Shown here: in pieces, positions 1-22,228 of the stretch
Layout of the letters: each line of letters opens with the position of its first letter
Numbering within the stretch: the stretch's first letter is position 1
NCBI GenBank assembly: GCA_965262915.1
Contig: OZ253564.1
Coordinates: 1,056,001 to 1,120,000 of the forward strand
Origin: Candidatus Spongiisociaceae bacterium
Lineage (GTDB): Bacteria > Actinomycetota > Acidimicrobiia > Spongiisociales > Spongiisociaceae
Length of the DNA: 64,000 nucleotides
Direction: 5' to 3'
Made by a program: the position numbers and the translations under genes
Notes under the pieces: generated by a model
What the model was told of the DNA's origin: nothing
What the model saw: only the letters and a program-made list of their open reading frames with translations
Database searches by the model: none

Positions 1-1
1 C

Positions 2-544: not shown

Positions 545-699
545 GTTCCGCATAAGTTTGGCGTCTATCCGACTCCCGGTCTCGCTATCGGGCCTCGCCG
601 CGCGTTGTACCCGGCCGAGCGAGTCATAGAGGTCGGCGTGACGTTTGACCTGGGGTGCGGGGTCTATTCTGGGATGGTGCCCGCCGCTATGTGGGCGGC

Positions 700-785
700 G
701 AACCTCAGGAGGACGACCGCGACCGGGTGGTGCTGGAACAGCGGCGCCGCGACGCGCTGGCACGGGTCAATCCCGGTGCCCTTCG
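700..785 (+). pseudogene. hsdR: Short remnant of type I restriction subunit HsdR N-terminus
   Basis: Translates DDRDRVVLEQRRRDALARVNP, resembling the HsdR N-terminal VVLERRLRDALARLNP and the second remnant at 1851. Confidence 0.5.
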
Positions 786-846
786 TGGTCGGGTGCGGCG
801 ACGGTTGTGTCAGGCTGTCCCAGCCAGAAGGTACGATGCCGGAACC

Positions 847-1854
847 ATGAGCGATGGAAGAGATGAGCAGTCTCCGGGCGGCGAGATCGTTGTCTACGGG
901 GCCCCGGACGGCGCCGTGCGCGTGGATGTCCGCCTCGACCGAGAGACGGTCTGGCTGACCCAGCGACAGATGGCCGAGGTGTTCGACACTTCGACCGACA
1001 ATGTCAGCCTCCATCTGAGAAACATCTTTTTGGATGGTGAGCTAGAGGAGACGGCAACTACCGAGGATTTCTTAGTAGTTCGATCTGAGGGCGGGAGACG
1101 GGTCAAGCGCCGTATCAGGCACTACGACCTCGACGCCATCATCTCCGTGGGCTACCGAGTCAACTCGAAGCGGGCTGTGGGCTTTCGCCGGTGGGCCACG
1201 CGCACCTTGCGCGAACACCTGGTCCGGGGTTACACCCTGAACGAGCGGCGGCTTGCCGAGCGCGGCCTGCGCGAAGCGCGTGAGACGCTGGATCTCCTGG
1301 CCCGGACGCTGCAGAACCAGGCGCTGGTGGACGAGACCGGGCGGGCCGTGCTGGGTCTCATCTCGGGTTACGCCGACACCTGGCGGCTGCTCCTCGAGTT
1401 CGACGAGGACCGGCTGGCTGTTCCGGCCGACGCGAAGCCGGCCACGAGCGCGTTGGACTACGACCGCGTCGTCGGGACGATCGCCGAGTTCAAGCGCGAT
1501 CTGGCTGCGCGCGGCGAAGCGTCGTCGCTGTTCGGCAATCGCCGCGGTGACGCGCTCGAAGGCATTCTCGGCAACGTCGAGCAGACCATGTTCGGGGAGC
1601 CGCTCTACCGCTCGCGGGAGGAGAAGGCGGCGAACCTGCTCTACTTCCTGGTGAAGGATCATCCCTTCACCGACGGCAACAAGCGCATCGGCTCGCTGTT
1701 GTTCCTGCTCTATCTCGAAGAGGAGGGAGTGGAACATCGGCTCAACCCCCAAGCGCTCACCGCGCTCACCCTGCTCATCGCCGAGAGCGCGCCGCGCAGC
1801 AAAGACCTGATGGTCCGCCTCGTCGTCAATCTGCTGGCAAAGCCGGCCGCATGA
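847..1854 (+). CDS. RhuM-family/Fic-Doc fusion protein
   Basis: N-terminal ETVWLTQRQMAEVF...YDLDAIISVGYRVNS (RhuM-like) and C-terminal Fic motif HPFTDGNKR; ATG at 847 preferred over ORF start 655. Confidence 0.9.
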   Translation: MSDGRDEQSPGGEIVVYGAPDGAVRVDVRLDRETVWLTQRQMAEVFDTSTDNVSLHLRNIFLDGELEETATTEDFLVVRSEGGRRVKRRIRHYDLDAIISVGYRVNSKRAVGFRRWATRTLREHLVRGYTLNERRLAERGLREARETLDLLARTLQNQALVDETGRAVLGLISGYADTWRLLLEFDEDRLAVPADAKPATSALDYDRVVGTIAEFKRDLAARGEASSLFGNRRGDALEGILGNVEQTMFGEPLYRSREEKAANLLYFLVKDHPFTDGNKRIGSLLFLLYLEEEGVEHRLNPQALTALTLLIAESAPRSKDLMVRLVVNLLAKPAA

Positions 1855-2140
1855 TCCACTTCAACGAGTCCGGGGTGGAGGACGCGGCTCTGGGAATGGC
1901 TCGACGGCCTTGGCCGGCGCCTTGGTCATTGGTCCCGACATCGCCCCGATACGCCGGGTGCCGAGAGCGCCCACTCGGGGGAGTCGTGCTGGGACGGCGG
2001 CCTAGCGACGCACTGGCGCGGCTCAACACGGGTCTTCCGGCCGCCGCGCTCGACGACGCCTTCCGCAAGCTGACCTGACAGCGCAGTCGCGAACCTGGGC
2101 TACGAGACCCTGCGCGCCATCGCCCGTGAGTTGGTCGACT
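1851..2140 (+). pseudogene. hsdR: Internally deleted, frameshifted hsdR remnant
   Basis: FNESGVEDAAL...DALARLNTGLPAAALDDAFRKLT (HsdR N-terminus) joined to DSAVANLGYETLRAIARELV (resembles HsdR C-terminal DUF3387 region); ATGA overlap with the Fic gene. Confidence 0.7.
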
Positions 2141-2149
2141 CTGAAGCAT

Positions 2150-2404
2150 CGCACATATGGATGCGAACTGACAGACGGGACGCACATCGCGGGCACGTTG
2201 TGCACCAATAGTACGTCCGTGGAGGAGACGGCGGATCGAGACATCGCGTTGGTCGCTCCTATAACTTACCGGCCGGACGAAGCCACAGCGGAAGCCGTTC
2301 TTGACGATGTAGGGATCGTCATCGTGAACGCAGAGCGCATCAAGTTCCTGACTATCACATACGTGGATCCCACATATGAAACGACAAGGACGGAACCCCG
2401 GTGA
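2150..2404 (+). pseudogene. C-terminal fragment of a hypothetical protein (DUF6338-like)
   Basis: GCELTDGTHIAGTL...DRDIALVAPITYRP pattern; no N-terminal membrane part. Confidence 0.35.
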
Positions 2405-2699
2405 GAAACTCCATTACAAAGCCGAATCGCGCGGCGGTTCCGACAAGCGATCATGTCCTGCAACACCCTCACCACACGAACCCGGCGCAGATACAACCGG
2501 ATCGTCATGGATCACGAGCCATCGGGGTCAGCCCAGATACTCTTCGATAAACCTGGTGCAGTTCAGCTTCGGACATCGACATCGTCCGACTGTGCCTTGC
2601 CATCAGCGCATCTATTGGAACTCTGGGTGGGTCTCATGAGACGGTGCGCCGGATCGTAACAACAAGCAGAGTTGTCAGGACTCGTCAACAGAGCGGCGG

Positions 2700-4046
2700 C
2701 TAGAAGCTGGGGAGTTTGGTATCGTCGAATCGGCCCGCTTCGATGTCGGCTAGGGCGCGGTCAAAGATGCACAGGGCTTCATCGGCGTCGCTTCGGGTGA
2801 TGGTCAACGGCGGTGTGATTTCCATCACGTTCCCGAACGCCAGCAGTATCAGGCCGAGTTCGAAGCAACGGTATGCGAGCCGGAGGGCATCTGTTTCGGC
2901 GGGCTCGCGCGTCCGTTGATCCTTCACCAGTTCGACCCCGATCAGGAGGCCCTTTCCACGGACATCGCCGATCAGGGGGTGGTCGGCCGCCATATCGTTC
3001 AGCTTGCCGCGCAGGTACCTGCCCATCTCGCCGGCGTTGCGCACCAGTCCTTCTTCCTCGATCACGTCGAGAACCGCGACGGCGGCGGAGCAGGCCAGCG
3101 GGGAGCCACCCAGCGTGTAGGCCGTGTAGAGGTCGACATCGAGGATCTCTTCGCGGCCGACAACCGCCGAGAGCGGGAAGCCTCCTCCCAAGGGCTTGGC
3201 GAGCCCGATCGCGTCCGCCTCGATTCCGAAGTGCTCGAAGCCGAACATGCGGCCCGTCCGTCCCAGGCCGACCTTGACCTCGTCGAATATCAACCAGATC
3301 CCCCGCTCATCGCACAGTTCTCGCAGAGCCGGGAAGTAGTTGTCCGGGGGAACGATCTCGCCGCTATCGGACTGGATGCTCTCGGCGAATATCGCCGCCG
3401 TCTCGTCGGAGGGCGACACGCTGACCAGCAGATCGTTCTTCAGGTAGCCGAGGCATCTGAGGGAGCATTCGTTCTTGTCGCACGGACCCCAGGCGCATCG
3501 GTAGGGGTTGGGATAGGGAGCCTTGGTGATGTGACCGCCGGGTATCGGCCTGGTCAGCGCTCCATGCCCCGAGATGGCGCCGGAGCCGATCGTCATGCCG
3601 TGGAACGCGCCGATGTAGGACACCAGCCTCGGTCTCCCCGAGGCGATGGGCGCCACTTTGGCGAGCATGTCCATGGCGTCGGAGCCCGACACGCCGAACC
3701 AGGCCTTCTTGGCGAAGTCCCCCGGGAAGAGGTCGATGAGTCGCTCCGCCAATTCGACGGCAGGCTCGTGGATGTAGCAGACGAGCGGACCGCTGTACTC
3801 GTTGTTTATGGCGTCGATCGCCGCCTGGCGTACCTTGGGATGGCCGTATCCGGTGGCGGCCGTTCCTCCGGTTGCCATCCAATCGAGGTACTCGTTGCCG
3901 TCCTTGTCCCACATGCGGACACCGTCCGACTTGGCGACCACGAACGGATACAAGCGGTATTTCATCGACGGCGTTATGACGGCCTCGTCGCGAGCGACGA
4001 CGTCCCGACTCCGGGTCAGGTCTCGCTTATCGGAAGGATCTCGCAT
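2700..4046 (-). CDS. Class-III aminotransferase-fold PLP enzyme, alpha-amino-epsilon-caprolactam/amino-acid-amide racemase-like
   Basis: GYGHP, SGSDA, IQSDSG, DEVKVGLGRTG, PLP lysine in AKPLGGG; GAGGAG RBS upstream of ATG 4046. Confidence 0.85.
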   Translation of the reverse strand: MRDPSDKRDLTRSRDVVARDEAVITPSMKYRLYPFVVAKSDGVRMWDKDGNEYLDWMATGGTAATGYGHPKVRQAAIDAINNEYSGPLVCYIHEPAVELAERLIDLFPGDFAKKAWFGVSGSDAMDMLAKVAPIASGRPRLVSYIGAFHGMTIGSGAISGHGALTRPIPGGHITKAPYPNPYRCAWGPCDKNECSLRCLGYLKNDLLVSVSPSDETAAIFAESIQSDSGEIVPPDNYFPALRELCDERGIWLIFDEVKVGLGRTGRMFGFEHFGIEADAIGLAKPLGGGFPLSAVVGREEILDVDLYTAYTLGGSPLACSAAVAVLDVIEEEGLVRNAGEMGRYLRGKLNDMAADHPLIGDVRGKGLLIGVELVKDQRTREPAETDALRLAYRCFELGLILLAFGNVMEITPPLTITRSDADEALCIFDRALADIEAGRFDDTKLPSF

Positions 4047-4143
4047 GTGACATGCTCCTCGCGCGTCGTGTACAAGAGAATATCGAGCCGGTGGTGGGAT
4101 CGGCGGTTCGATCCGGCTGGTCACCCGGGTTGTGGTTCGGGGA

Positions 4144-6459
4144 TCACTCAGGGTGTAACAGCTCCCACACCACATCGGGACGCAGCGGGGTGCGGTCGAT
4201 GCGGGTGCCGAACGGTGCGAGGGCGTCGGCGACCGCATTGGCAACGGCGGGGGGCGAGGCGAGCGTTCCGGACTCGCCGACCCCGCGCACGCCCAGAGGG
4301 GTATCCGAGGGCGTGACCATGTTGTCCAGGGTCAGCCTGGGCATCTCCATCGCGGAGGGGAGCAGGTAGGCGGCGAAACTCGCCGACGGGACCTGGCCCG
4401 ACTCGTCGTGGCTGACCTGTTCGTAGAGTGCCTGGCCTATTCCCTGGGCGATCCCGCCGTGGATCTGGCCGTCGACTATCCCGGGGTTGATCCCGACGCC
4501 GTAGTCGTCGACCGACACGAAGTCGAGGATCTTGACCTTTCCGGTTCCCACGTCGACCTCGACCACGGCCGCGTTGGCGCCGAAGGCGAAGTTGACATCG
4601 GGCGGGTCGTAGAAGGCCGTTGCTTCGAGTCCCGGCTCGACCATCGGCCCGCAGCGTTTGAGGAAATGCGCCTCCTCGGCTACCTCCTGCCACGAGACCG
4701 TGGACTCCGGACTCCCCGCGACGGTGAAGATCCCGTCGGCGTAGACGATGTCCTCCGCGGCCGCTTCGAGCATGGCCGCCGCCACCCGCCGCGCCTTGTG
4801 GACGACGCGCTCGGCCGCCACCAGAGCGGCATGGCCACCGACGACCGCCCCCCGGCTGCCGTGGGTGCCGCCCCCGAACGGGATGGTCTCGGTGTCGCCG
4901 TGCACGACCGTGATGTGGTCGAACGGGATCTGCAGCTGGTCGGAGACGATCTGAGCGACGATCGTGTCCGATCCCTGGCCCTGTGGCGACAGGCCCGAAT
5001 AGGCGACCGCCTTGCCCTGCGGGTCCACCCGGATCAGCGTCGACTCGTGGCCGGGGAAGAACTTCATGGGATTCCAGTCGTGGCCGGACGGCGAGAAACC
5101 GCACAGCAGGTTGTAGGTCGCGAAGCCGATCCCCAGGTAGCGATCCTCCTCCAGCGCCTCCTCCCGACGAGCCCGGACCGACTCGTAGCCGATGAGTTCG
5201 GCCGCGCGCCGCAACAGGGCCGGGTAGTCGCCCCCGGTATAGGTCAGGCCGAACGGTGTCTGGTAAGGCAACTGGTCGGGTGCGACGAGGTTGCGCAGGC
5301 GGATTTCGACCGGGTCGATGCCGAGCTCGCGGGCGGCTTCTTCGATCATCCGCTCCAGCACGAACGTCGCCTCGGCTCTCCCCGAACCTCGCAACGCATC
5401 GATCGACATCTTGTTGGTGAACACCTTCTCCAGCTTGATGTCGACACTCGGTATGTCGTAGTTGCCGGTGAGGGTGTCGATCGTCAGGTCCGGAACGACA
5501 GGCGTGAAGAAGTGGAAGTAGGCGCCGAGATCCCCGACGAAATGGCTGCGTAGCGCGAGGATCCTTCCGTCGGGGTCGAGGGCGAGCTCCGCGTCGTGGA
5601 TCTGGTCCCGGGCATGGACACCGGCGGTGAAGTTCTCGGTCCTGGTCTCCACCCACTTCACGGGGACACCCAACTCCAGGGCAGCCCAGATGATCGCCAG
5701 CTCGTCGGAGTACAGGTTGAGCTTGCTCCCGAACCCGCCGCCCACATCGGGAGCGACGATGCGGAGCTTGGACTCGTCCAGCTCGAAAATGTGGGCGAGC
5801 CAGGTGCGCAAGGTGTGCGGCCCTTGGCACGAGAGCCACACGGTGAGATGGCCGGTGGCCGGTTCCGGGACCGCCAGGATGGCGCGCGGTTCCATCGGTG
5901 AAGCCGATATCCGCTGCACCGTAAGGCGGCGCGCCACCACATGGTCGGCCCTGGCGAACGCACTATCGGGATCGCCGACCACTTTGTGGATCTCGCCGAT
6001 CTTGTTCGTGCCCCGGTCGGGATGCACCAGCGGAGCGTCGGTCGAGAGCGCCTCCCACGGATCGAGGACGTGGGGGAGGGGTTCGTAGTCGACATCGACG
6101 CGCTCGGCGCCGTTGATCGCGGTCCTCGGATTGGTTGCCAGCACCATCGCCACCGGCTCGCCCACGTAGTGAACGCGATCGCCTGTGAGTGGAGTCCGCG
6201 GTGGGGAGTCGTCGGCAGCCGCGCTGGGAATCAGTGGCATCCGTTGCGCCGACTCGGATCCGGAGAAGACGGCGACAACATCCGGAGCCCGGCGTGCGTA
6301 TCCCAGGTCGACCGATGTGATGTCAGCGTGCGCGAAGGGGCTTCGCACGAACGAGGCATGGACCATGTGGGGCACGGTGATGTCGTCGACGTAGCGGCCC
6401 CTACCCGCCAGGATTCGGGGATCCTCCTTGCGGGGTAAGCGGGCGCCGATGGCGGTCAT
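4144..6459 (-). CDS. Xanthine-oxidase-family molybdopterin large subunit (CoxL-like, not form I CODH)
   Basis: RKEDPRILAGRGRYVDDI start, VGGGFGSK, active-site loop ALRGSGR, GQIHGGIAQGIG, catalytic RGVGE. Confidence 0.92.
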   Translation of the reverse strand: MTAIGARLPRKEDPRILAGRGRYVDDITVPHMVHASFVRSPFAHADITSVDLGYARRAPDVVAVFSGSESAQRMPLIPSAAADDSPPRTPLTGDRVHYVGEPVAMVLATNPRTAINGAERVDVDYEPLPHVLDPWEALSTDAPLVHPDRGTNKIGEIHKVVGDPDSAFARADHVVARRLTVQRISASPMEPRAILAVPEPATGHLTVWLSCQGPHTLRTWLAHIFELDESKLRIVAPDVGGGFGSKLNLYSDELAIIWAALELGVPVKWVETRTENFTAGVHARDQIHDAELALDPDGRILALRSHFVGDLGAYFHFFTPVVPDLTIDTLTGNYDIPSVDIKLEKVFTNKMSIDALRGSGRAEATFVLERMIEEAARELGIDPVEIRLRNLVAPDQLPYQTPFGLTYTGGDYPALLRRAAELIGYESVRARREEALEEDRYLGIGFATYNLLCGFSPSGHDWNPMKFFPGHESTLIRVDPQGKAVAYSGLSPQGQGSDTIVAQIVSDQLQIPFDHITVVHGDTETIPFGGGTHGSRGAVVGGHAALVAAERVVHKARRVAAAMLEAAAEDIVYADGIFTVAGSPESTVSWQEVAEEAHFLKRCGPMVEPGLEATAFYDPPDVNFAFGANAAVVEVDVGTGKVKILDFVSVDDYGVGINPGIVDGQIHGGIAQGIGQALYEQVSHDESGQVPSASFAAYLLPSAMEMPRLTLDNMVTPSDTPLGVRGVGESGTLASPPAVANAVADALAPFGTRIDRTPLRPDVVWELLHPE

Positions 6460-6923
6460 CGCGGCCCGCTCCGTTCCGGACCGGAGAGGACGGCGTCGAC
6501 GATGTGCTGGTAGCCGGTACACCGGCACAGGTTGCCCTCCAGGGCCTTGCGGACCTCCGGTTCGGACGGCTCGGGGTTTTGCCGGAGAAAGGCGGTACCG
6601 GCCATCAGGAAGCCGGACGTGCAGAACCCGCATTGGAGGGCGAAGTGTTCGGCGAATGCCTGCTGCAGCGGTGATAGCGTCCCGCCGTCCGCAAGCCCTT
6701 CGACCGTCTCGACCTCGCGGCCGTCAGCCTGGCCGGCGAGCACGGTGCACGACTTGACCGCGGCCCCGTCGAGGATGACGGTGCACGCACCGCAACTGCT
6801 CGTGTCACACCCCACGTGGGTTCCGGTCAGCTCCAATTCCTCTCGCAACAGGTGCACGAGCAGCGTGGACGGGTGGCAGTCGACAGTCCGGTGTACGCCG
6901 TTGACCGTGACCGTGACCTTCAT
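6456..6923 (-). CDS. 2Fe-2S small subunit (CoxS-like)
   Basis: GCDTSSCGACTV...SC, QCGFC, NLCRCTGY. Confidence 0.95.
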   Translation of the reverse strand: MKVTVTVNGVHRTVDCHPSTLLVHLLREELELTGTHVGCDTSSCGACTVILDGAAVKSCTVLAGQADGREVETVEGLADGGTLSPLQQAFAEHFALQCGFCTSGFLMAGTAFLRQNPEPSEPEVRKALEGNLCRCTGYQHIVDAVLSGPERSGPR

Positions 6924-7780
6924 GCGCCGGCACCTCCCGCGGCGGCGCGCCGGATGGCGCGCCTGGCGAGGACCTTCACGAGTTCCCGCTTGTACCGGGA
7001 GCTTCCCCGATCGTCGCCCACCATGGGGGCCGACGCCGCGGTAGCTGCCGCGGCCCGGGCGATTTCCGGTGGGCCCGCGCCCGACCCCACCAGGAGGCTC
7101 TCGGCTTCGGCGGCCCGTGACGCGATGTCCATCCCCCCGGTCACCGCGATACCGGCCCCGGTGATACGTCCGTCCTCGTCCATGGTCAGTTGAACCGCGA
7201 CGCCGGCCACTCCGTAGTCGGCTGCGGCTCGCTTCATCTTCTCGTAGGCACCCGCCGATCCCCGAGGTAGCTGGACCTTCGTGATCAGCTCGCCTCTCCG
7301 GAGGGAGGTCTCGAAGGGTCCCACGAAGAGGTCGTCACTTTCGATGGTTCTCGTTCCGCTCTCCCCTTCGGCGATGACCCGCCCACGGGCTGCCAGCAGC
7401 GCGGCGGGCAGGTCGTTGAGCGGGTCTGCATGAGCCAGGTTCCCGCCGACGGTGCCGAGGTTGCGCACGAGAGGGTCTGCGATCACCGACGCGGTCTCGC
7501 TCCACAAAGGGGCGAAGGCGCGCACCGGCGCGCTGGTGGCCAGCCGGTTCGTCGTCACCAGAGCCCCGATATCGAGGAACTCCCCGAACGACTCGATGGA
7601 GTCCAATCCCTCGATCCTGCCGATGTCGACCACGACCGAGGGCCGGACCAGTCGGAAGCGCATCATCGGGATGAGGCTTTGGCCTCCGGCCAGGGCCACA
7701 GCGTTGGCGTCGCCGTTGAGAGCCGCGACAGCACCCTGGACCGTTCTGGCGGCGCGGAACTCGAAGTCAGGCGGTCGCAT
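6920..7780 (-). CDS. FAD-binding medium subunit (CoxM-like)
   Basis: LAGGQSLIPMMRFRL, RNLGTVGGNLAHADP. Confidence 0.93.
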   Translation of the reverse strand: MRPPDFEFRAARTVQGAVAALNGDANAVALAGGQSLIPMMRFRLVRPSVVVDIGRIEGLDSIESFGEFLDIGALVTTNRLATSAPVRAFAPLWSETASVIADPLVRNLGTVGGNLAHADPLNDLPAALLAARGRVIAEGESGTRTIESDDLFVGPFETSLRRGELITKVQLPRGSAGAYEKMKRAAADYGVAGVAVQLTMDEDGRITGAGIAVTGGMDIASRAAEAESLLVGSGAGPPEIARAAAATAASAPMVGDDRGSSRYKRELVKVLARRAIRRAAAGGAGA

Positions 7781-7840
7781 CGGTAATCGACGGCGATCTA
7801 TCCGGAACCGGTCTGGACCGGATCGAGTTGATCCTCCCCG

Positions 7841-7938
7841 GAGGGTGCTCAAGAACCGGTAGATGGTTGGCCCGTCGTCCGCTGACTCGGCATTTTGTCA
7901 TCGACAGTCGGGCCAACCGGGGATTGTTGACCACCCTC
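7841..7938. repeat. Palindromic MITE-like dispersed repeat, copy 1
   Basis: Terminal inverted repeats GAGGGTGCTCAA / TTGACCACCCTC, inner IR GGTTGGCCCG/CGGGCCAACC; similar to 22229-22327 and 37353-37431. Confidence 0.7.
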
Positions 7939-8304
7939 CTGGTGTCACGAGTCGGGGATCCGTTGCAGATACTCCGGGACGCACCGAACATCCCCCACCC
8001 AGCAGGCCGCACAGGTCGCGAGAAACGAGAACGCGAAAAAGGCCACACCGGACCCCGGCCGCGGGCCCACCCCCAACCGCCACCTCCTAGGCTCCGAACG
8101 CGTCCCTCCATCCCCGCGAGGGTCGGCTTCGACAACATGATCCCTGCCACGGTCCCCTCGACGCCGAAGGTGGACCGGTGGTGTTTACGGCTACCTAGCA
8201 GTATGCGACACGACTGTGACACAGTCAACCCCCTTGTGGCGGACTGCCCGCTCCGGGGCGGGGACCTGCAGGCGGTCCGGCGCGCACTTTGTTCGGTGCC
8301 GGAT

Positions 8305-9336
8305 TCATGAGTTGGCGTCTTCCCAGGGTCGAGGCCTTATATGGCAAGCTACCAGATGCCCGGGTTCGGAGGGCTCGAGCATGGGTTCGGTGTGTCGGCA
8401 CACGTCCTCGACGAAGGGACACCTCGTGGAGAACTTGCATCCGGGGGGTAGGTCGAGCGGTGAGGGAACATCTCCGCGCAGGGGCGGCGCGCTCCTGTGA
8501 CGCGGATTCGGGTCCGGGCGGGAAGCCAGTAGGGCTTGGGTGTAGGGGTGCTCGGGCCGCTCGAACACCTTCCCGATCGGCCCCCTCTCGACGAGTCTCC
8601 CCATGTACATGACCGCCACCGTGTCAGCCACCTGGGAGACGACGGAGAGTTGGTGAGCGATGAGGATCATCGTCAGCCCCAGGCGATCCTGGAGGTCTCG
8701 GAAGAGGTTGATGATCTGAGCCTGGATCGAGACGTCGAGTGCGCTCACCGGTTCGTCGGCGATGATCATGTCGGGGTCGACAGCGAGAGCACGCGCGATG
8801 GCGACCCGCTGCCGCTGCCCGCCGCTCAGCTGCCTGGGACGACGCTCGGCCAGGGTGGGGGAGAGGCCGACGCTTTCGAGGTGCCGGGCGACGAACGCAT
8901 CGTGTTGCCCGGCCTCCACCAGACCGTGCACCTTGCCCGCTTCGAGGATCGCGGCTCCCACCGTCAGGCGGGGGTTCAGGGACGTGAAGGGGTCTTGGAA
9001 CACCATCTGGACCCGGCGCCGCAGTCGCCGCAAGTCGCCTCCCTCGATGGAGCGCACATCGACACCGTCGAACCGGACCGCTCCCTCGTCGGGGTCTACC
9101 AGCCGGATCAGGCACCGGCCGAGCGTGGTCTTGCCGCTTCCCGACTCGCCGACGATGCCCATCACCTCACGCCGCCGCACCTCGAAGGACACATTCTCCA
9201 CGGCGACCAGGCGTCGGACGGGAGCGCGCCTCACCCGCTCGCCCCAAGTACGGCGTACCGGGTATCCCTTGGTCAACCCGTCGACTCGGAGCAGAACATC
9301 CCTGGTCGATTCCTGCGGCCGATGCGCAGCGGTCAT
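8305..9336 (-). CDS. Oligopeptide/dipeptide-type ABC ATP-binding subunit (OppF-like)
   Basis: [23 protein letters not shown]-terminal GCKFSTRC...VACH. Confidence 0.93.
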
Positions 9337-10328
9337 CGTGACACATCCTCGGGGTCCGGCCCCCCTGCGTCGCGGTCGCGCCACGTCACGAAGGGGCAGG
9401 CAGTGGCATGGTCGGGTCCAACGACCTGCAGCGACATCGGGACCGATTCGCACCCATCTCCGACGAAGCCGCATCTGGGGCTGAACGGGCATCCCGGTGG
9501 CAGCCTCGAGAGTTCCGGAGGCTGTCCCCTCACGGGAACGATCTGCGAGCGTCTTGCCGGATCGAGATGCGGGATCGATGCCAGCAACGCCTGGGTGTAC
9601 GGATGGTTCGGGTGATCGAATATCTCCTGGACGGGCGCCTGCTCGACGATGTAGCCGGCGTACATGACCGCCACGCGATCGCAGTGTTGTGCGATGACGC
9701 CGAAGTCGTGTGAGACGATGATCATCGCCATGCCCGTGTCCCGCTGCAGCTCGGTGAGCAGCGCCATTATCTGCGCCTGAACCGTCACATCGAGGGCCGC
9801 GGTCGGTTCGTCCGCGATGAGGAGCATGGGTTCGGTGGCTATGGCACCGGCGATCATGGCGCGTTGCCTCATCCCGCCGCTCATCTCGTGTGGGTACGAG
9901 TGGAACTGCGTCTCCGGAGAGGCGATCCCGACCCGGTCGAGCAACTCGACCGCCCGACGGGTCGCTTCTCGGGTAGCCATCCCGCCCTTGATCCTGAGTA
10001 CCTCGACGATCTGGTTTCCTACCTTGTAGACGGGGTTGAGGGACGCCGTCGGGTCCTGGAACACCATGCCGATGTCCCGCCCGCGCACGGCCCGCAGTTC
10101 GGCCGACGACAACCGGAGCAGGTCGCGCCCGTCGAACATGACCCGCCCCTCGATGACCTCGCCCGGCTTGGGTACCAGTCCGATGAGTGATCGGCAGGTC
10201 ATGCTCTTGCCGGATCCCGACTCGCCGACCAACGCGAGCGTTGCTCCCCGCTCGAGTGTGAAACTCACCCCGTTGGTAGCGAGCAGCAGGCCGTGCAGAG
10301 TCGGAAAGCCGGTATGGAGATCTTCCAC
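9333..10328 (-). CDS. Oligopeptide/dipeptide-type ABC ATP-binding subunit (OppD-like); start uncertain (frame open to 10463)
   Basis: [31 protein letters not shown]. Confidence 0.9.
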
Positions 10329-10348
10329 CTGGAGGAGCGGGGACCCGC

Positions 10349-11251
10349 CTACACCGTCAATCGGAGCTCCTCTCCCAGCCGGTCGGCGAGCGCATCGCCG
10401 AGCATGCTGAAACCGACTCCGATCATCACCAGCACGAGCCCGGAAAGGGTGGTTATCCACCAACCAACCCGGAGATGCGCCTGCCCGTCGGCGACGATGA
10501 CGCCGAGTTCGGCGGTCGGCGCCTGGACCCCGAGACCGAGATAGGAGACGCCCGCTATGAGCAGGAGGTTGAGGACGATGTCAGCCACCGAGAACACGAG
10601 CGGGGACCGGATGAGGTTCGGTACCGCGTGCCTACCCAGAATGCGCGCCGTGGAGTAACCGAGGCCTCTGGCGGCCAGCATGTACTGCTGCTCACGGATC
10701 ACCAGCATCTCGCCCCTGGCCAACCGGGCGTAGAGAGCCCAGCCGACCGCGAGCACCCCGATGAAGATGCCGACCAGCCCCGGCCCCGTGATGGCAACGA
10801 CCGCGATCACGACCACCAGGAAGGGGAACGCCATCACGATGTCGACGGCACGATTGACAACCGTGTCGACCCAGCCCCCGAAGTGCCCGGCAACCATACC
10901 CAGAGTGACGCCCACCAGCAGAGGCACGTAGGTGATAATGAGCACGATCGCCATGTCAAGGCGTATTCCGTGCAGGACACGGGAGAACACGTCCCTACCG
11001 AGTTCGTCGGTTCCGAATATGTGGTCTCCGGAGGGTGGCTGGAGTGTTTCCAACAGGTTGAGTTCGTTGGGTGGGTACGGAGCGATCCACGGAGCCAGCA
11101 GCCCGGCGATGACGACCAGCGCCACGATCGATCCGCCGATGTAAAGCGCGACGTTGGACCATCGCCGATCGGACAGTGCCCGCCTTCGCAGCCGGCGGGT
11201 TGCCACCAGCAGCCGCTCCTGGCGCGCAGGCACTTCCCGGGCGATGCTCAC
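10349..11251 (-). CDS. ABC transporter permease (OppC/DppC-like)
   Basis: HIFGTDELGRDVFSR, EAA-like loop YMLAARGLG, multiple TM segments. Confidence 0.93.
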   Translation of the reverse strand: MSIAREVPARQERLLVATRRLRRRALSDRRWSNVALYIGGSIVALVVIAGLLAPWIAPYPPNELNLLETLQPPSGDHIFGTDELGRDVFSRVLHGIRLDMAIVLIITYVPLLVGVTLGMVAGHFGGWVDTVVNRAVDIVMAFPFLVVVIAVVAITGPGLVGIFIGVLAVGWALYARLARGEMLVIREQQYMLAARGLGYSTARILGRHAVPNLIRSPLVFSVADIVLNLLLIAGVSYLGLGVQAPTAELGVIVADGQAHLRVGWWITTLSGLVLVMIGVGFSMLGDALADRLGEELRLTV

Positions 11252-12192
11252 TTCTCAACCAGCGTCACGCGGGGATCTATCGCCGCGTAGGTCAGATCGG
11301 CCGCCAGGTTGATCACGATGACGGTGAGCCCGAAGAACAGAACCGTAGCCTGGATGACCGGATAGTCGCGTTGCAGCACCGCCTCGATCACCAGCGAGCC
11401 GAGTCCCGGGATCGCGAAGACGTTCTCGACGATCACGGACCCGCTGATCATGAAGCCGATGATGAGCGAGAGCACCGTGACCGTCGCGATCAGCGAGTTA
11501 CGCATGACGTGTTTGCCGATGACCCTGGACTCTCGGTATCCCTTGGCCCTGGCAGCCTCCACGTACTCCTGATCCATGACCTCGATGATGCTCGAGCGCA
11601 GGGTTCGGGCGAGGATCGGGGCCAGGAACAGCCCGATAGTGGCCGCCGGCAACGTGAGGCTGCGCAGGATGGTGAGAACATTCGTCTTGTCGTAGCCCGC
11701 CACCGGCAGCCAGCCCAACCTGATCGCGAAGAAGAGCGCCAGCAGCAGCCCCAGCCAGAACGAGGGCATTGCGAACGTGATCATGCTGCCCAGCCGCATG
11801 AGATGGTCCTGCCAGCGGTTTCGCTTCACGGCGGAGAGGATGGCGAGGGGAACCGCCAGCACGACGGCGATCACCGCGCTGTACAACAGCAGCGCGAAGC
11901 TGATCACCGCACGGGAGGCGATCACGTCGCGAACCGGTTCCTTCTTGAGGATCGACTCCCCGAAGTCACCGACGACCGCACCCCTCACGAATCCTATGAA
12001 CTGCTCGGGTACCGAACGGTCAAGACCCAACTCGCGTCGCAGGCTGGCCAGGCTCTCCGGCGTGGCGTTGTACCCCAGCATGTTCAGGGCCGGGTCTCCC
12101 GGCACCAGCACGATGATGACGAACGCGCCGACGGTGACCGCCACTACCACCGGGATGCTGTGCAGGAGGCGGCGACCCAGGTAACGGAACAC
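11248..12192 (-). CDS. ABC transporter permease (OppB/DppB-like)
   Basis: VPGDPA, YVEAARAKG, ENVFAIPGLG, RDYPVIQ. Confidence 0.93.
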   Translation of the reverse strand: MFRYLGRRLLHSIPVVVAVTVGAFVIIVLVPGDPALNMLGYNATPESLASLRRELGLDRSVPEQFIGFVRGAVVGDFGESILKKEPVRDVIASRAVISFALLLYSAVIAVVLAVPLAILSAVKRNRWQDHLMRLGSMITFAMPSFWLGLLLALFFAIRLGWLPVAGYDKTNVLTILRSLTLPAATIGLFLAPILARTLRSSIIEVMDQEYVEAARAKGYRESRVIGKHVMRNSLIATVTVLSLIIGFMISGSVIVENVFAIPGLGSLVIEAVLQRDYPVIQATVLFFGLTVIVINLAADLTYAAIDPRVTLVEK

Positions 12193-12236
12193 GTTTCCGG
12201 GTCAGCCGCCCTGCCGGTGCGTAGTCGGGATTTTCC

Positions 12237-13922
12237 TTACTGCTCGATCCATGTGTTCTCGAAGTGGTACACGCCGAGAGCGTCCTGGTCGACATCGTGA
12301 ACGCCATCGCGCACACCCGTCGCCAGGGGTAGCCACAGGATGTTCAGCCAGGGCATGTCGGCGACCCACTCGGCCTGGATCTGGGGCCAGAGTTCCTGCC
12401 GCCTCTCTTCGGTGGCCGCAACCGCCTCTTCCACCTTGGCCCACACCGACTCGTTGCCCCATCCGCTGAAGAGGCCGTCCAGTCCGGCGTCGGTGGGATC
12501 GGCCATCAGCAGAGCGAACTCGTCGGGAACCAGCACGTCCGACGTCCATTTCAGGAAGGGCATCGTGATCTCGTATCCGTAGCTGAACAGGTTGTCGGCC
12601 AGCGTGCTCTCATCCAGCTCCACGAGTTGCAGGTCCACGCCGATCTCGGCCCACTGGGCCTGGAGGACGGTGGCCAGAGACTTGTGCTGCCCGGAACCGG
12701 CCGGGAACTGGAACGTGACGCTGAAGCCTTCGGGAACCGACGACGAAGCCATCAACTCCTTCGCCATGTCCAGGTCGAATGAGAACGGGGGGACTTCGCT
12801 GGTCGATGCGTTGTACTTGAGCGGCGGGATCAGATGGTTGGGGATCGTTCCGACCCCTCCGAATACCGCGGCGTTGATCGCCTCACGGTCGGTGGCGTAG
12901 CTCAGCGCCTGGCGAACGGCTAGCTCTTCGAGTGGGGGGACGTTGTGGTTGATCCAGACCGGCTCCTGGCGGGTGACCTCACGTACGAGCACCGTGACGC
13001 CGTCGAGACCCCCGACCGCGTCGATCTGGGTGAACGGGACGCTCTCCATGACATGTGCCTCGCCCGAGTCGAGCTTCAACGCCCGGGTGTTGTCGTCCAC
13101 TATGAAGTCGTAGCGCAACTCGTCGAGATAGGGCTTGCCTTCCTCCCAGTAGTAGGGGTTCGGCTCGAAGCTGATGCTCGTGCCCCGGATCCACTCCTTG
13201 AGCTTGAAGGGTCCGCTGCCGACCGGGTCCTCCCAGAAGGCGTCGCCCTGGGCCTCCAGCACTGCCTTCGGCACGATGTACGCCGGGAAGATGCTGATGT
13301 TCTCCAGGAACGCGGCGATCGGCTGGTCGAGATGGATGATGAAGTTCCGGTCGTCGACGATCTCCGTACCCGTGTAGCCGAGCGCGAGGAACGGGAGGAT
13401 GGTGTTTATGTCGGGGTCCGCGAACCTGTCGATCGAGTACTGGACATCTTCGGACGTGACCGGATCACCGTTGCTGAACCGGGCGTTCTCCCGGAGGGTG
13501 AAGGTCCAGTCGAGCCCGTCAACGCTGACCTCCCACGACTCGGCGAGGGCCGGGATGATGGAGGTGCCGCCCTTGGGATCCGCGTACACCAGAGTGTCGA
13601 AGATCAACTCGTGGGCGTAGATCTGACCATTGTCGGACAACTCGAACGGGTTGAGCGTGTTGGTCTCGAGCTGGCGGGCGAAAACGAGAGTGCCACCGCG
13701 CTGCGGACCGGACATGGCAGCTTCGGTTGTTTCCGGCGCCGCTGCCTCGGTTGTTTCCGGCGCCGCTGCCGCTGCCGCGGTAGTCGTTGTGGCAGCTTGG
13801 GTAGCTTGGGTGGCCGCCTGAGTCGCCTCCGGCGCTTCATCATCGTCGGTTCCGCACGCTGCCGCTACCAGCCCGATAACCAGCAGGCAAGCAGTCATAC
13901 GGTAAAGGGGTCGCAGTGTCAT
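12237..13922 (-). CDS. Family-5 ABC solute-binding lipoprotein
   Basis: Lipobox LVAAAC, Ala/Thr/Glu-rich linker, PALAESW...FTLRENARFSNGDPVTSEDV, GSGPFKL. Confidence 0.93.
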   Translation of the reverse strand: MTLRPLYRMTACLLVIGLVAAACGTDDDEAPEATQAATQATQAATTTTAAAAAAPETTEAAAPETTEAAMSGPQRGGTLVFARQLETNTLNPFELSDNGQIYAHELIFDTLVYADPKGGTSIIPALAESWEVSVDGLDWTFTLRENARFSNGDPVTSEDVQYSIDRFADPDINTILPFLALGYTGTEIVDDRNFIIHLDQPIAAFLENISIFPAYIVPKAVLEAQGDAFWEDPVGSGPFKLKEWIRGTSISFEPNPYYWEEGKPYLDELRYDFIVDDNTRALKLDSGEAHVMESVPFTQIDAVGGLDGVTVLVREVTRQEPVWINHNVPPLEELAVRQALSYATDREAINAAVFGGVGTIPNHLIPPLKYNASTSEVPPFSFDLDMAKELMASSSVPEGFSVTFQFPAGSGQHKSLATVLQAQWAEIGVDLQLVELDESTLADNLFSYGYEITMPFLKWTSDVLVPDEFALLMADPTDAGLDGLFSGWGNESVWAKVEEAVAATEERRQELWPQIQAEWVADMPWLNILWLPLATGVRDGVHDVDQDALGVYHFENTWIEQ

Positions 13923-14178
13923 CGGGCCTCCCTCGCCTAATGGAGTTTGGTTCAGCCCGCGGGACTACCGGCACAGTCGCCTGGCGGCCGGATCGTCTGA
14001 TCCTTGTCGGCCGAACTTTGCTCCCTGAGGCTAGACGAACGGGTTTCTGCGCGTCGGGCAGAGCAAGGTGGCGTGTTCTGTGGTCAGAAGCCTTGTGTCC
14101 GACGGCTAGGGCGGCCGTCGGGAGTAGCGGGTCGTTCTGGGTGCCTCTCGGTGTATTGGGAGCCGGTCGGGCGAGCAA

Positions 14179-14195
14179 CCGTTGACCGTCAACGG
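14179..14195. promoter_or_regulatory. Perfect 8-1-8 palindrome, possible operator
   Basis: CCGTTGAC-C-GTCAACGG between the divergent ABC operon and TA pair. Confidence 0.3.
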
Positions 14196-14253
14196 CGAAC
14201 GCACAGGCGAACCTTCAGTGACCGCTGTCACCCGTGCCCGCCATGATGTCGCG

Positions 14254-14262
14254 TGGTATCAT
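14254..14262 (+). promoter_or_regulatory. Possible extended -10 element of the TA pair
   Basis: TGGTATCAT 10 nt upstream of ATG 14273. Confidence 0.3.
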
Positions 14263-14272
14263 TAGGATACGT

Positions 14273-14464
14273 ATGAGCAAAGAGGTTTTGGTGTCACCAA
14301 GTCCAGCGACTGACACCGATGATTGCACGCTGGCCGATATCGAAGCGTGTACGGGCGTGGTCGCTGACCTTACAGGCGACTACGCGGCTGGCCGGACGAT
14401 GTTCTTCGAGACTGGCGAAAAGTTTCTCGAGTTCCTGGGTGCGCGAGTCCACGAATCGGACTAA
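14273..14464 (+). CDS. Small acidic putative antitoxin
   Basis: 63 aa directly upstream of the RelE-like gene; C-terminal DYAAGRTMFFETGEKFLEFL resembles antitoxin tails. Confidence 0.45.
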   Translation: MSKEVLVSPSPATDTDDCTLADIEACTGVVADLTGDYAAGRTMFFETGEKFLEFLGARVHESD

Positions 14465-14479
14465 CGCACTTGAGGTCGG

Positions 14480-14782
14480 GTGCCCACCTACGAACAAACG
14501 GCGGCGTTCATTCGCGATTTTGACCGTCTGACGAAAGAGCAACAGGGACGGTTCCTTGACGCGTTGTCGCGCTCCATTGCTGACCTGGTAGCGATAGAGG
14601 CAGGCCAGGAATACCGCTTTCGCCCAGGGCTCCGGGTGAAACGGGTGCAAGGCATACCGGGCTTGTTCGAGATGACTTGGGCACCCGATGGCCGAGCCCT
14701 TTTTTCGTGGAGCGACCAAGTCGTGCAAGGCAGGCGGCATGTCATATGGGAACGCTGCGGCGATCATGCCGTTCTTCCCTAG
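14480..14782 (+). CDS. RelE/ParE-superfamily-like toxin
   Basis: MPTYEQTAAFIRDFDRL...GLRVKRVQGIPGLFEMTW...DGRALF...VIWERCGDH pattern, 100 aa. Confidence 0.65.
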   Translation: MPTYEQTAAFIRDFDRLTKEQQGRFLDALSRSIADLVAIEAGQEYRFRPGLRVKRVQGIPGLFEMTWAPDGRALFSWSDQVVQGRRHVIWERCGDHAVLP

Positions 14783-15003
14783 AATCAGGGAGCACCGTTC
14801 GCGGCAACTCTCTCCCGCCATACAACACCATCCATGTCGGCGGGTGGCTGTCACTGATCCGCACAAGCGTTGTGGGCCCGGATAACGCACGCGACTGGAA
14901 GGGGACCGTCGGTGAAGTTCCAATACTTGGTTGGGTTCCGCGGGTTGGGCAGACACGATGATTCGGTAGATGGTCGGTGTGGGTAATAAGAGTTAGCGAA
15001 CCG

Positions 15004-16041
15004 TTACTGCTTCAGGACCGCATCAACAGCTGCGATGATCCGTGCGGCGTCCGGGATGTAGGCGTTCTCTAGGGGTGGGCTCAGCGGTACCGGCGAATGG
15101 GGGGCTGTCACCCTCCTCACGGGCGCGGCCAGCACATCGAATGCCTGCTCCGAGACCATTGCGGCGATGTCCGCCGCGATGCTGCACCTCGGGGGGCTCT
15201 CATCCACGACTATCAAGCGTTTGGTCTTGCGTACCGACTCGAGGATCGTCTCCGAATCGAGCGGAGAGAGTGACCTGGGATCGATCACCTCCGCCTCGAT
15301 GCCGTCCGATGCCAGGGTCGCGGCGACCTCCAGCGCCAGCTTCGCCATGTACGAGATCCCGACGATGGTCACATCCGTACCCGGGCGGGTAACAGAGGCC
15401 GAGCCGAGCGGGACGGTGTAGGGGTCCTCCGGTACCTGCTGGCGGGTGTTGTAGAGCCGCATGTGTTCGAAGAACAGGACCGGGTCGTCGTCGGCGATCG
15501 CCGCCAATAGCAGGCCCTTGGCGTCGTAGGGTGTCGTCGGGACCACCACCTTGATGCCGGGCAGGTGGGTGTAAAGGGAGTACAGGGTGTCGGAGTGCTG
15601 CCCGGCCGCCCCGAGTCCGGCCCCGATGGCCATGCGAAGCACCAGAGGAACGCTCGCCTGCCCACCGAACATGTAACGCATCTTGGCCGCCTGGTTGTGG
15701 ATCTGGTCGAAGGCCAGCGGCGTGAAACTGGACCACATCATGTCGACGACCGGCCGGATCCCGGACGCCGCCGCGCCGACCGCGATCCCGACCAGACCCG
15801 CCTCGGAGATAGGGGTGTCCCGGACACGGGAAGAACCGAACTTGTGGAACAGGCCCTTGGTGGCGCCGAAGGTGCCTCCCATCGCCCCTTCGTACGGTTC
15901 GCCGAGACCCGCTCCTCCGACCACGTCTTCGCCGTAGACGACCACGGTCTCGTCGGCCTCCATCGCCTGGAACATGGCTTCGCCTACGGCGTGGATCATG
16001 GTGATCGGTCTTCTACCCACCGTAAGCTCCGCTGTAGACAT
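15004..16041 (-). CDS. acoB: TPP-dependent 2-oxoacid/acetoin dehydrogenase E1 beta subunit
   Basis: GEDV, RVRDTPISE, DQIHNQAAK, AAGQHS, PYDAKGLL. Confidence 0.88.
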   Translation of the reverse strand: MSTAELTVGRRPITMIHAVGEAMFQAMEADETVVVYGEDVVGGAGLGEPYEGAMGGTFGATKGLFHKFGSSRVRDTPISEAGLVGIAVGAAASGIRPVVDMMWSSFTPLAFDQIHNQAAKMRYMFGGQASVPLVLRMAIGAGLGAAGQHSDTLYSLYTHLPGIKVVVPTTPYDAKGLLLAAIADDDPVLFFEHMRLYNTRQQVPEDPYTVPLGSASVTRPGTDVTIVGISYMAKLALEVAATLASDGIEAEVIDPRSLSPLDSETILESVRKTKRLIVVDESPPRCSIAADIAAMVSEQAFDVLAAPVRRVTAPHSPVPLSPPLENAYIPDAARIIAAVDAVLKQ

Positions 16042-16987
16042 AGTCGGTCACGCCGGCGGCGGTCGGCCACGGATCGGACTTGGCTGCAGCTACTCCCCGG
16101 TCGAGTTCGTCGATGATGCCTGCCCGGATACTCCCTACGGCTGCTTCGGTGAGCAATCCGGCGGCGCTGAGTTCTGACTGGAGTCGCTCAAGCGGGTCCC
16201 GGCTCCTAGCGTCCGCAAGGTCGTCCTCGTTTCGGTACTTCTGGGTGTCGCCCACGTAGTGAGCCGAAATGCGGGGGATCTTCGCCTCAATGAACGACGG
16301 ACCCTCACCGCGACGGGCTCGCTCGATCGCCTCTCCGGCCGCCTCGTAGATGGCGAAGACATCCGCTCCGTCGACGATATGGCCCGGGATGCCGAACCCG
16401 TCTGCCCTCCGGCTCAGATCCGCAACGCTCTGTGCATACGACGCCGGAGTGGACTCCGCCCAACCGTTGTTCTCGCACAGGTATATGACAGGCAACTTCC
16501 AGATCGACGCCAGGTTCATCGATTCGTAGAGGATGCCCTGCCCGGCCCCGCCGTCCCCGAAGAAGCTGACCGAGACGTTCGACGTACCCTTGACCTGTTG
16601 GGCGAAGGCCCCGCCGGTGGCGAGGCCGATGCTCCCGCCGACGATCGCGTTGGCTCCCAGCATCCCTCTCTCGAAGTCGGCGATGTGCATCGATCCGCCC
16701 CGTCCCTTGCACAGACCGGTTTCGCGGCCGTACAGCTCGGCGAGCATCCCCGAGATCGAACATCCCTTGGCGAGACTGTGCCCGTGGCCCCGATGCGTGC
16801 TGGCGATGAGATCGGTATCCGACAGGTGGGCGCACACCCCGGTCGCCACCGCTTCGGCGCCTATGCAGGTGTGGACGAAGCCGGGCATGTCGCCCCGCTG
16901 GTACTCGAGCGTGACCCTCTCCTCGAACAGGCGGATCGTCATCATCGTCTCGAACATCTCCAGCAGCGTCCGATCCGGGACGGTCAT
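16013..16987 (-). CDS. acoA: TPP-dependent 2-oxoacid/acetoin dehydrogenase E1 alpha subunit
   Basis: STHRGHGH, GRGGSMH, TPP motif GDG...ENN, HYVGD. Confidence 0.88.
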   Translation of the reverse strand: MTVPDRTLLEMFETMMTIRLFEERVTLEYQRGDMPGFVHTCIGAEAVATGVCAHLSDTDLIASTHRGHGHSLAKGCSISGMLAELYGRETGLCKGRGGSMHIADFERGMLGANAIVGGSIGLATGGAFAQQVKGTSNVSVSFFGDGGAGQGILYESMNLASIWKLPVIYLCENNGWAESTPASYAQSVADLSRRADGFGIPGHIVDGADVFAIYEAAGEAIERARRGEGPSFIEAKIPRISAHYVGDTQKYRNEDDLADARSRDPLERLQSELSAAGLLTEAAVGSIRAGIIDELDRGVAAAKSDPWPTAAGVTDYVYSGAYGG

Positions 16988-17262
16988 GCGGGCGCTCCTC
17001 CTTCGACCAGGCTGCGGTATTCGGCATCGTTCTCGGCGATCCAGCCGATGACCGTTCCGATCGGATAGTCCTCACCGACCGGAGCCCCGTGGTGCACGAT
17101 CCCGGCGGCGCCCGCCTCGATTTCCACCTCCACCTTGTTGGTCTCCATGAGGAAGACCGCCTCGCCGGCCCGGACCGAAGCGCCCTCGTCGACCAGCCAT
17201 GCGATCAGATGGCAATCGTCCATGTAGATGCCGGTCTTGGGCACGAAAACTTCATGGGCCAT
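16984..17262 (-). CDS. Stand-alone lipoyl-carrier domain protein
   Basis: WLVDEGASVRAGE, METNKVEVEIEA with lipoyl lysine; 92 aa, no E2 core. Confidence 0.85.
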   Translation of the reverse strand: MAHEVFVPKTGIYMDDCHLIAWLVDEGASVRAGEAVFLMETNKVEVEIEAGAAGIVHHGAPVGEDYPIGTVIGWIAENDAEYRSLVEGGAPA

Positions 17263-17343
17263 GGTTAGTGGTCCGTCTGCGAAATGGCGGTGTGGCATGC
17301 AGGGCACGCCATGTTGTTTTGCAGACGGACCACTGGTTCCTCC

Positions 17344-18629: not shown

Positions 18630-18678
18630 GGAACTCTCCTTTCTCTCAGAGTCTCGTCGGCGGACTCTACGAACCCCG

Positions 18679-22211: not shown

Positions 22212-22228
22212 GGTTCGATCCCTTCCTG

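Follow-up and report, generated by a model that had tools for sequence, protein, structure and literature searches.

A candidate importer-plus-racemase unit flanking a clade-specific molybdenum enzyme in one family of Acidimicrobiia

Does a row of nine genes in a genome of the Acidimicrobiia encode one linear catabolic pathway, or does it consist of an enzyme core with optional flanks? The row lies at 2700-13922, on the minus strand, of the window, by which we mean the whole stretch of 64,000 nucleotides analysed here (positions 1,056,001 to 1,120,000 of contig OZ253564.1, assembly GCA_965262915.1, Candidatus Spongiisociaceae bacterium). The window has a G+C content of approximately 65% and belongs to a 5.06-Mb single-contig genome. 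Pfam assigns the nine co-oriented genes to a family-5 ATP-binding cassette (ABC) importer, the CoxM-, CoxS- and CoxL-type subunits of a molybdenum enzyme, and a class-III pyridoxal phosphate (PLP) protein, and this agrees with the gene content, domain content and family assignments of a first-pass annotation made from the letters alone. That annotation had also proposed a linear pathway, running from import through Mo-hydroxylation to an alpha-amino-lactam, then racemisation and hydrolysis. This proposal is not supported, because the linkage is narrow, CoxMSL is kept alone in some relatives and no lactam hydrolase is encoded inside the nine-gene block.

The reading that we prefer, and to which as a whole we give about an even chance, is that the row is accessory, catabolic and restricted to one lineage of sponge-associated Acidimicrobiia, and that in it an optional importer-plus-racemase feeder unit surrounds a clade-specific molybdenum enzyme, all inside a larger accessory catabolic array. 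The molybdenum enzyme would be the constant core, a three-subunit hydroxylase/dehydrogenase of the xanthine-oxidase/carbon monoxide dehydrogenase (CODH) family with a putative organic substrate, and the importer and PLP enzyme would be the optional flanking unit. The importer would take up a small peptide-like, alpha-amino-amide or lactam compound, and the PLP enzyme would act on a substrate lacking a free alpha-carboxylate and invert or racemise its alpha-carbon. One stereoisomer would then be fed into downstream steps, which may involve the molybdenum enzyme together with the E1 alpha/beta-lipoyl, amidohydrolase and PhyH genes upstream.

The optional nature of the flanks is seen in the relatives. 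The window was compared with L099, L100 and L117-L125, which makes 11 distinct loci (L001-L004 are, judged by length, the same contigs as L122, L123, L118 and L125, respectively), and the full nine-gene row is present in seven of the 11. In three others (L099, L121 and L124), CoxMSL is intact and both the importer and the PLP gene are absent; in L099 and L121, CoxM then comes directly after the genes for PhyH, amidohydrolase, MDR, E1 alpha and E1 beta. In L117, the PLP gene is absent and the importer side lies beyond the contig end. The importer and the PLP gene stand on opposite sides of CoxMSL, and in all ten loci with both sides visible they are either present together or both absent. L120 also has a second, partial copy of the PLP gene (14746-15255; residues 279-448, 92% identity) approximately 2 kb downstream of the complete one.

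Parts of the absent genes persist in some of these loci. C-terminal remnants of the second ATPase (AtpF) are found in L099 (last 59 residues, 7533-7700) and L124 (last 30 residues, 7325-7414), and L124 also keeps the last 38 residues of the PLP enzyme (11198-11311). Because these remnants flank an intact CoxMSL, the full row is ancestral and the absences are secondary losses. In a maximum-likelihood tree of the coxMSL DNA (FastTree), the variants with losses occupy three separate positions (L121 with L124, L099, and L117) with local supports of 1.0, so if the tree reflects descent, the importer was lost at least twice and the PLP gene at least three times. From their joint presence or absence across CoxMSL, we infer that the importer and the PLP enzyme are functionally coupled, and the retention of CoxMSL where both are lost suggests that it is of value without them.

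The nine-gene row does not extend beyond one family, and its presence varies even between members of the same genus. When a clade-specific 181-residue segment of CoxL was used as the query, the clade was found in 10 of the 401 genomes sampled from the order, all of them from one family (the window genome and 9 of 28 other members), where it occurs in 3 of 7 genomes of one genus and in 6 of 12 of a second. There was no further carrier among the 400 other genomes of a 401-genome sample of the phylum, which is a sample only. The same segment returned eight loci from a metagenome scan, of which only two were close (90%) and none came from the 66-76% group. For the PLP enzyme, a genome-collection scan gave 68 loci, and a CoxL was sought within 10 kb of each. 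Only four of the 68 have any CoxL nearby, and all four are 92-94% identical, come from the same family and hold the full nine-gene row. None of the 12 loci with PLP enzymes of 52-77% identity has a CoxL: eight (75-77%) also have no family-5 importer, and the same is true of the four at 52-60%, one of which, L013, adjoins flagellar genes and a divergent family-5 binding protein. The first-pass annotation had made its pathway depend on linkage being conserved in other genomes and, with 4 of 68 PLP loci, 10 of 401 genomes of the order and both flanks lost in 3 of 11 loci, it largely is not.

The 77% group of PLP enzymes is a paralogue, because a copy of 90% identity (L019) and one of 77% (L005) occur in the same metagenome-assembled genome (MAG); the window genome has no other copy above 45% identity. 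In L007, the gene of this 75-77% paralogue (9998-11344) comes directly after a 2OG-Fe(II) oxygenase gene (8872-9921) and faces a sugar-type ABC system, and tblastn shows the same oxygenase flank in L006-L012, which is another possible natural context for enzymes that resemble the lactam racemase ACLR. The nearest relatives of the window's PLP enzyme come from MAGs of Acidimicrobiia, 'Candidatus Spongiisociaceae' and 'Candidatus Spongiisocius variivorans', and an RNA run labelled as sponge metagenome holds short near-identical parts of the window.

So narrow a distribution raises the alternative that the genes are neighbours without a common job, brought together in a plastic accessory region where each enzyme serves a different substrate. 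Linkage in one family only, patchy in both genera, fits this explanation, as do the repeat insertions and the mobile or defence-like genes at the border (both described below) and the abundance of similar genes in the same genome, where there are 26 CoxL paralogues and where the binding-protein query and the class-III query each give at least 23 tblastn matches. Chance adjacency does not readily account for two genes on opposite sides of CoxMSL being co-present or co-absent in ten of ten loci, nor for the operon-like spacing of the row in relatives, and we consider it rather unlikely.

The core enzyme has the parts expected of a three-subunit member of the xanthine-oxidase/CODH family, all encoded on the minus strand. 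The CoxM-like medium subunit (6920-7780) is FAD-binding, with FAD_binding_5 (PF00941) and CO_deh_flav_C (PF03450) domains, and its start at 7780 agrees with the start in relatives. The CoxS-like small subunit (6456-6923) has Fer2 (PF00111) and Fer2_2 (PF01799) domains for two [2Fe-2S] clusters. The CoxL-like molybdopterin subunit (4144-6459) has the hammerhead domain Ald_Xan_dh_C (PF01315) and two molybdopterin-binding domains, MoCoBD_1 (PF02738) and MoCoBD_2 (PF20256), all above cut-off. It also carries the Gln motif SCQGPH (5815-5832) and the Glu motif GVGESGT (4264-4284), both conserved across its clade and the clade's neighbours; the roles of the active-site Gln and the C-terminal catalytic Glu are known from work on CODH and xanthine dehydrogenase.

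The active-site loop of CoxL reads ALRGSGR (5377-5397, residues 355-361), which is neither the form I CODH loop nor the usual form II loop AYRGAGR, as the first-pass annotation had observed. A large protein collection was searched with the window CoxL, and of the best 120 matches the 35 clusters with 66-91% identity have ALRGSGR (34) or PLRGSGR (1), and these 35 are exactly the carriers of either loop. Outside this set, identity drops to 48% or less and 75 of the remaining matches have AYRGAGR. The set also has common stretches that its neighbours are without. The loop therefore marks a small real clade and is not a chance oddity.

A deviant loop is not in itself special in this genome, and this counts against the proposed pathway. 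The genome's 26 CoxL paralogues vary at the aligned position: one has AYRCSFR, two have AYRGAGR and others have FRGFGG, AYRGVAR, AYRGFGT, SYRGFGK, TYRAPGR and more. With so many variants present, a loop outside forms I and II is ordinary here, and deviant loops are the rule; a Leu at the second loop position is found in the window copy only. Several of the paralogues cluster at 3.79-4.10 Mb of the genome, another example of the 26 genes lies at 1611814-1614120, and the single true form I copy (AYRCSFR) has CoxM and CoxS upstream.

Form I CODH shares much with the window enzyme: three subunits, the gene order M-S-L and the same domains, and the form I structures 1n5w and 8uem are its best solved relatives (518-579 bits). 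The loops differ, however. Where 1n5w has the Cu-binding Cys of AYXCSFR, the window CoxL has Gly, with one residue fewer, and a function as CO dehydrogenase is unlikely because the loop is without the Cys of the Cu site. The form II proteins (AYRGAGR, 'putative CoxL') come closest in sequence outside the clade, with 40-48% identity, but the window loop has Leu for Tyr and Ser for Ala, and none of the 35 clade members has the form II loop. Gene order separates them as well: the window has M-S-L, whereas all 28 next-best loci (≤47% identity) in a 301-genome sample of the class Acidimicrobiia have S-L-M, with AYRGAGR in 13 of the 13 that were read on the plus strand. The 28 loci include one (L079) from a genome flagged as unpublished.

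Loops that are not of the CODH type occur in enzymes for organic substrates. Quinoline 2-oxidoreductase (1t3q), 6-hydroxypseudooxynicotine dehydrogenase (7dqx) and the Sulfolobus glyceraldehyde oxidoreductase type (4zoh) share the three-subunit architecture (364-491 bits), and the window loop aligns with AYRAPGR of 7dqx as well as with AYRCSFR of form I. None of the three is closely related to the window enzyme, so no substrate was transferred from them. The best NCBIfam model for CoxL is glyceraldehyde dehydrogenase alpha (692.8 bits, cut-off 790), followed by aerobic CODH (TIGR02416; 623.6 bits, cut-off 991).

According to passages of a survey by Burgsdorf et al. (ISME J, PMC8941161), coxL (COG1529) is strongly multiplied in sponge symbionts, with Actinobacteria among the richest at approximately 12 per genome (this genome has 26), and more than half of the symbiont CoxL proteins have no assignable substrate. 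The passages of the survey that a keyword search brought up do not mention this loop, aminotransferases or gene neighbourhoods. A literature search turned up no mention of ALRGSGR.

The PLP enzyme (2700-4046, minus strand; Aminotran_3) is a fold-type-I protein that had been annotated as lactam-racemase-like. Its ranking against structures in the Protein Data Bank (PDB) and its active-site residues uphold that call, with an exception at Tyr137 that is weighed further below. The nine best PDB matches, at 313-330 bits, comprise the P. horikoshii Ala/Ser and broad-specificity racemases, ACLR, four ACLR homologues and an amino-acid amide racemase; below them stand isoleucine 2-epimerase (284 bits) and the GabT and PuuE transaminases (228-235 bits). 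The best NCBIfam models, which all stay below cut-off, are 'aspartate aminotransferase family' and the archaeal Leu/Met and Ala/Ser racemase models. With ACLR, the enzyme shares the fold and an end-to-end alignment (313-325 bits), together with IQSD.G, DEVKVG, the Schiff-base Lys and a Glu that replaces a carboxylate-binding Arg. ACLR is nonetheless a distant relative from a different taxon and gene context, with a bit score similar to that of the archaeal free-amino-acid racemases.

The relevant motifs are GAFHG (3597-3611), IQSDSG (3360-3377), DEVKVG (3267-3284), LAKPLGGG (3180-3203) and NVMEITPP (2808-2831). LAKPLGGG and DEVKVG align with LGKGLGGG and DEVKVG of ACLR, so the window protein has the Schiff-base Lys (ACLR Lys267) and the Asp that a passage of PMC6424897 gives as the pyridine-N Asp (ACLR Asp238). 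IQSDSG aligns with IQSDGG, which contains ACLR Asp210, the equivalent of D234 in the P. horikoshii Ala/Ser racemase; K291A and D234A mutants of that racemase are inactive, according to a passage of PMC6047364. DEVKVG also holds the equivalent of ACLR Lys241, present in the window protein and in ACLR (2zuk), where the archaeal racemases have Gln. This Lys241 was reportedly proposed by Payoungkiattikun et al. in 2017 as a signature for finding ACL racemases in silico. By pattern matching, Lys occupies the position in 115 of the 120 best relatives (five were unmatched by the pattern), and class-III loci at 27-39% identity have mostly Gln or Met there and Lys in none.

The Glu of NV(L/M)E is likewise common to the window protein and ACLR, and is found in 112 of the 120 best relatives (eight were unmatched), whereas archaeal free-amino-acid racemases have Arg. 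We take this position to be that of GabT Arg398, an assumed equivalence in which GabT itself was outside the alignment. The conserved Arg with which GabT-type transaminases bind the carboxylate of the oxo acid is replaced by the Glu of NVMEITPP in the window protein. Passages of PMC5318993 call GabT Lys268 and Arg398 essential, and the importance of Arg398 is also stated in a passage of PMC9309667. The structures 9wqz and 9wrf (P. horikoshii Ala/Ser and broad-specificity racemases; 330 and 325 bits) and 5wya (isoleucine 2-epimerase; 284 bits) keep the catalytic Asp and Lys, but where the window enzyme has Lys and Glu, their residues are the Gln of DEVQTG and the Arg of NV(I/L)R, which fits free-carboxylate substrates. 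By its sequence, the PLP enzyme groups with ACLR and the amino-acid-amide racemases and apart from the transaminases. Its residues point to a racemase-type enzyme whose substrate, such as an amide or lactam, carries no free alpha-carboxylate, and speak against an oxo-acid-dependent transaminase.

These residues also bear on an amine-to-acid route, in which an omega-transaminase would turn an imported amine into an aldehyde and CoxMSL would be a molybdenum aldehyde oxidoreductase that makes the acid. Aminotran_3 is mostly a transaminase family, and the best NCBIfam models for the three subunits are glyceraldehyde dehydrogenase alpha, beta and gamma, at 692.8, 255.2 and 223.2 bits (all below their cut-offs of 790, 350 and 290). 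We nevertheless consider this route very unlikely. The window protein has Glu at the presumed GabT Arg398 position, Asp and not Glu in IQSDSG, and Lys and not Gln in DEVKVG, and its nearest characterised relatives are all racemases. For the molybdenum enzyme, Sulfolobus 4zoh scores only 364 bits with phmmer, against 579 for CODH.

On the other side of CoxMSL lie five minus-strand importer genes. The family-5 solute-binding lipoprotein (12237-13922; SBP_bac_5, 1.2e-84) has an N-terminal signal sequence with a lipobox-like VAAAC. It is followed by a DppB/NikB-type permease (11248-12192; BPD_transp_1 and BPD_transp_1_N, with all NCBIfam models below cut-off) and a DppC/NikC-type permease (10349-11251; BPD_transp_1 and OppC_N). 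Both ATPases have ABC_tran and the oligo_HPY tail: the first, of the OppD/DppD type, lies at ~9333-10340 with an uncertain start codon, and the second, of the DppF/OppF type (8305-9336), has its ATG at 9336, overlapping the stop codon of the first. Binding protein, two permeases and two ATPases together make up an Opp/Dpp/Nik-type importer by Pfam. No NCBIfam equivalog cut-off is reached that would assign a ligand class; the best model for the binding protein is GsiB, at 149.8 bits against a cut-off of 594. Its nearest solved chain, AapF (7kz8, 191 bits), is too distant for its ligand to be transferred.

With all three components described, the single pathway can be weighed in its own terms: an amino-substituted N-heterocycle or cyclic imine is imported, CoxMSL oxidises it at the carbon beside the ring nitrogen and so yields an alpha-amino-lactam, the ACLR-like enzyme racemises the product and a hydrolase opens the ring. 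Relatives do keep all nine genes in one tight same-strand row, the PLP enzyme does have ACLR-type residues, within 25 kb there are two amidohydrolases and one amidase, and xanthine-oxidase-family enzymes can oxidise cyclic iminium ions to lactams. On the other side, hydroxylation of an aromatic ring carbon would give a lactam of the pyridone type, in which the neighbouring carbon is no stereocentre, so that extra steps would be needed. The hydrolase is missing from the block itself, CoxMSL stands intact without importer and PLP gene in three of the 11 loci, a fourth locus has CoxMSL but no PLP gene, and PLP relatives of 52-77% identity have no CoxL nearby in any of 12 loci. We judge a single pathway to be quite improbable.

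Several observations weigh against the feeder-unit reading too. Two of the compared loci, L100 and L122, are identical and so are not independent. The argument from joint loss has weak points, in that it depends on a FastTree tree of closely related MAG loci, recombination could mimic independent losses, and the retention of CoxMSL could mean decay in progress and not independent function. None of the nine genes reaches the curated cut-off of any NCBIfam model. At the position of ACLR Tyr137, the window protein and its 20 nearest relatives have Phe (GAFHG for GAYHG), with Tyr in 89 of the 120 best relatives. Tyr137 stacks on the PLP ring in ACLR, according to a passage of PMC6424897, and racemisation could be impaired by Phe if the residue also serves as a base. 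Linkage may moreover extend further than we have credited: P0099 (a 58% PLP enzyme) and P0153 (a 69% CoxL) both report two contigs, the longest 11378 bp, which is a hint, also in favour of the single pathway, that the two genes reside together on one contig in more distant clade members. If linkage does hold in the 66-76% CoxL members, it is older and stronger than we assume. ACLR-type racemases are used in industry, and we know of no physiological substrate or natural role for them.

A bolder proposal is that racemase and ALRGSGR molybdenum enzyme form a symbiont pathway and act on one imported alpha-amino-lactam or alpha-amino-amide derived from the host or its community. Such a compound could be a cyclised lysine- or ornithine-type unit or an amidated peptide fragment. 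This is a long shot, but if true it would provide the first physiological role for ACLR-type racemases and a new substrate class for CoxL. The case is narrow (one bacterial family, optional genes and no sign of a new kind of mechanism), and what is new is a CoxL clade and an ACLR-type enzyme that are both uncharacterised and both within known kinds. This clade, with its own invariant loop and a gene context that is both defined and variable, nevertheless offers a tractable entry to the substrate of one sponge-symbiont CoxL, and an importer gained and lost together with the racemase gene suggests where the physiological substrate of an ACLR-type enzyme might be sought.

The two gaps first annotated in the row are real, 97 bp at 4047-4143 and 524 bp at 7781-8304. 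Dispersed repeats have inserted to form the larger one, which separates coxM from the ATPase gene and has 110 blastn matches in its own genome (E ≤ 1e-5, self included). The insertion contains a module of approximately 100 bp (~7816-7955) with up to 86 copies and one of approximately 300 bp (~7990-8270) with approximately 25 copies, and the repeats resemble a MITE-type element family. In relatives, coxM and the ATPase gene stand 65-110 bp apart, so their row looks like one operon; the repeat insertion is found there only in this genome, where it may split the row. Rfam gave no match at E ≤ 0.1 in window positions 1-20000, and a scan of 2300-15200 found no promoters or terminators beyond chance (promoter-like sites, 1 against 1.7 expected; terminator-like sites, 3 against 5.5 expected).

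Near-identical contigs of 147-581 bases come from RNA libraries, one of them a metatranscriptome (X19) and two of them runs only guessed to be RNA (X18, X20). They fall on the genes for the binding protein, permease, ATPase, CoxS/CoxL, PLP enzyme, E1, MDR, PhyH and the deacetylase-like protein, with DNA carry-over as a possible source, and no contig in X18-X20 bridges 4046-4144 or 7780-8305.

The upper boundary of the block had been drawn too narrowly, as a same-strand array continues upstream to ~22301. It consists of E1 beta (15004-16041, above the cut-off of the PDH E1-beta subfamily model), E1 alpha (16013-16987), a lipoyl-domain protein of 107 residues (16984-17307), an MDR oxidoreductase (17344 to ~18336), a cupin (18285-18629), an amidohydrolase (18679-20055; best model Caulobacter-type Xaa-Pro dipeptidase, 174.6 bits against 500), a PhyH dioxygenase (20079-20948), a protein of 117 residues with no assigned family (20997-21350) and a weak deacetylase-like protein (21363-22301), identified by Pfam and NCBIfam and all on the minus strand. 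The E1 beta/alpha genes stand upstream of the binding-protein gene in five of the seven full-row loci; they do not in L118, and L123 begins at a contig end. The content of the array and of the genes beyond it suggests that what is broken down is an amide, an amino-acid-like compound or a modified peptide. Farther along are a DUF4160 gene (22436-22699), an amidase (24641-26062), a second amidohydrolase (27944-29185), a proline-racemase-family gene (30784-31812) and an alpha/beta hydrolase, making the region rich in enzymes of amide bonds and stereo-inversion.

The spacer between E1 beta and the binding-protein gene (13923-15003) is 1081 bp long, compared with approximately 250 bp in relatives, and is unique in the genome and of lower G+C. 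Its longest open reading frame (14294-14956, 220 aa) was considered as a gene and rejected, having no family match and no third-position GC or coding-type codon bias. At the other border, a RhuM/Fic-domain gene (655-1854) and a DUF6338 fragment (2126-2404) lie directly past the PLP gene, where relatives instead have enolase-superfamily (MR_MLE), GlnA-like and GATase genes; the window genome is rearranged at this border.

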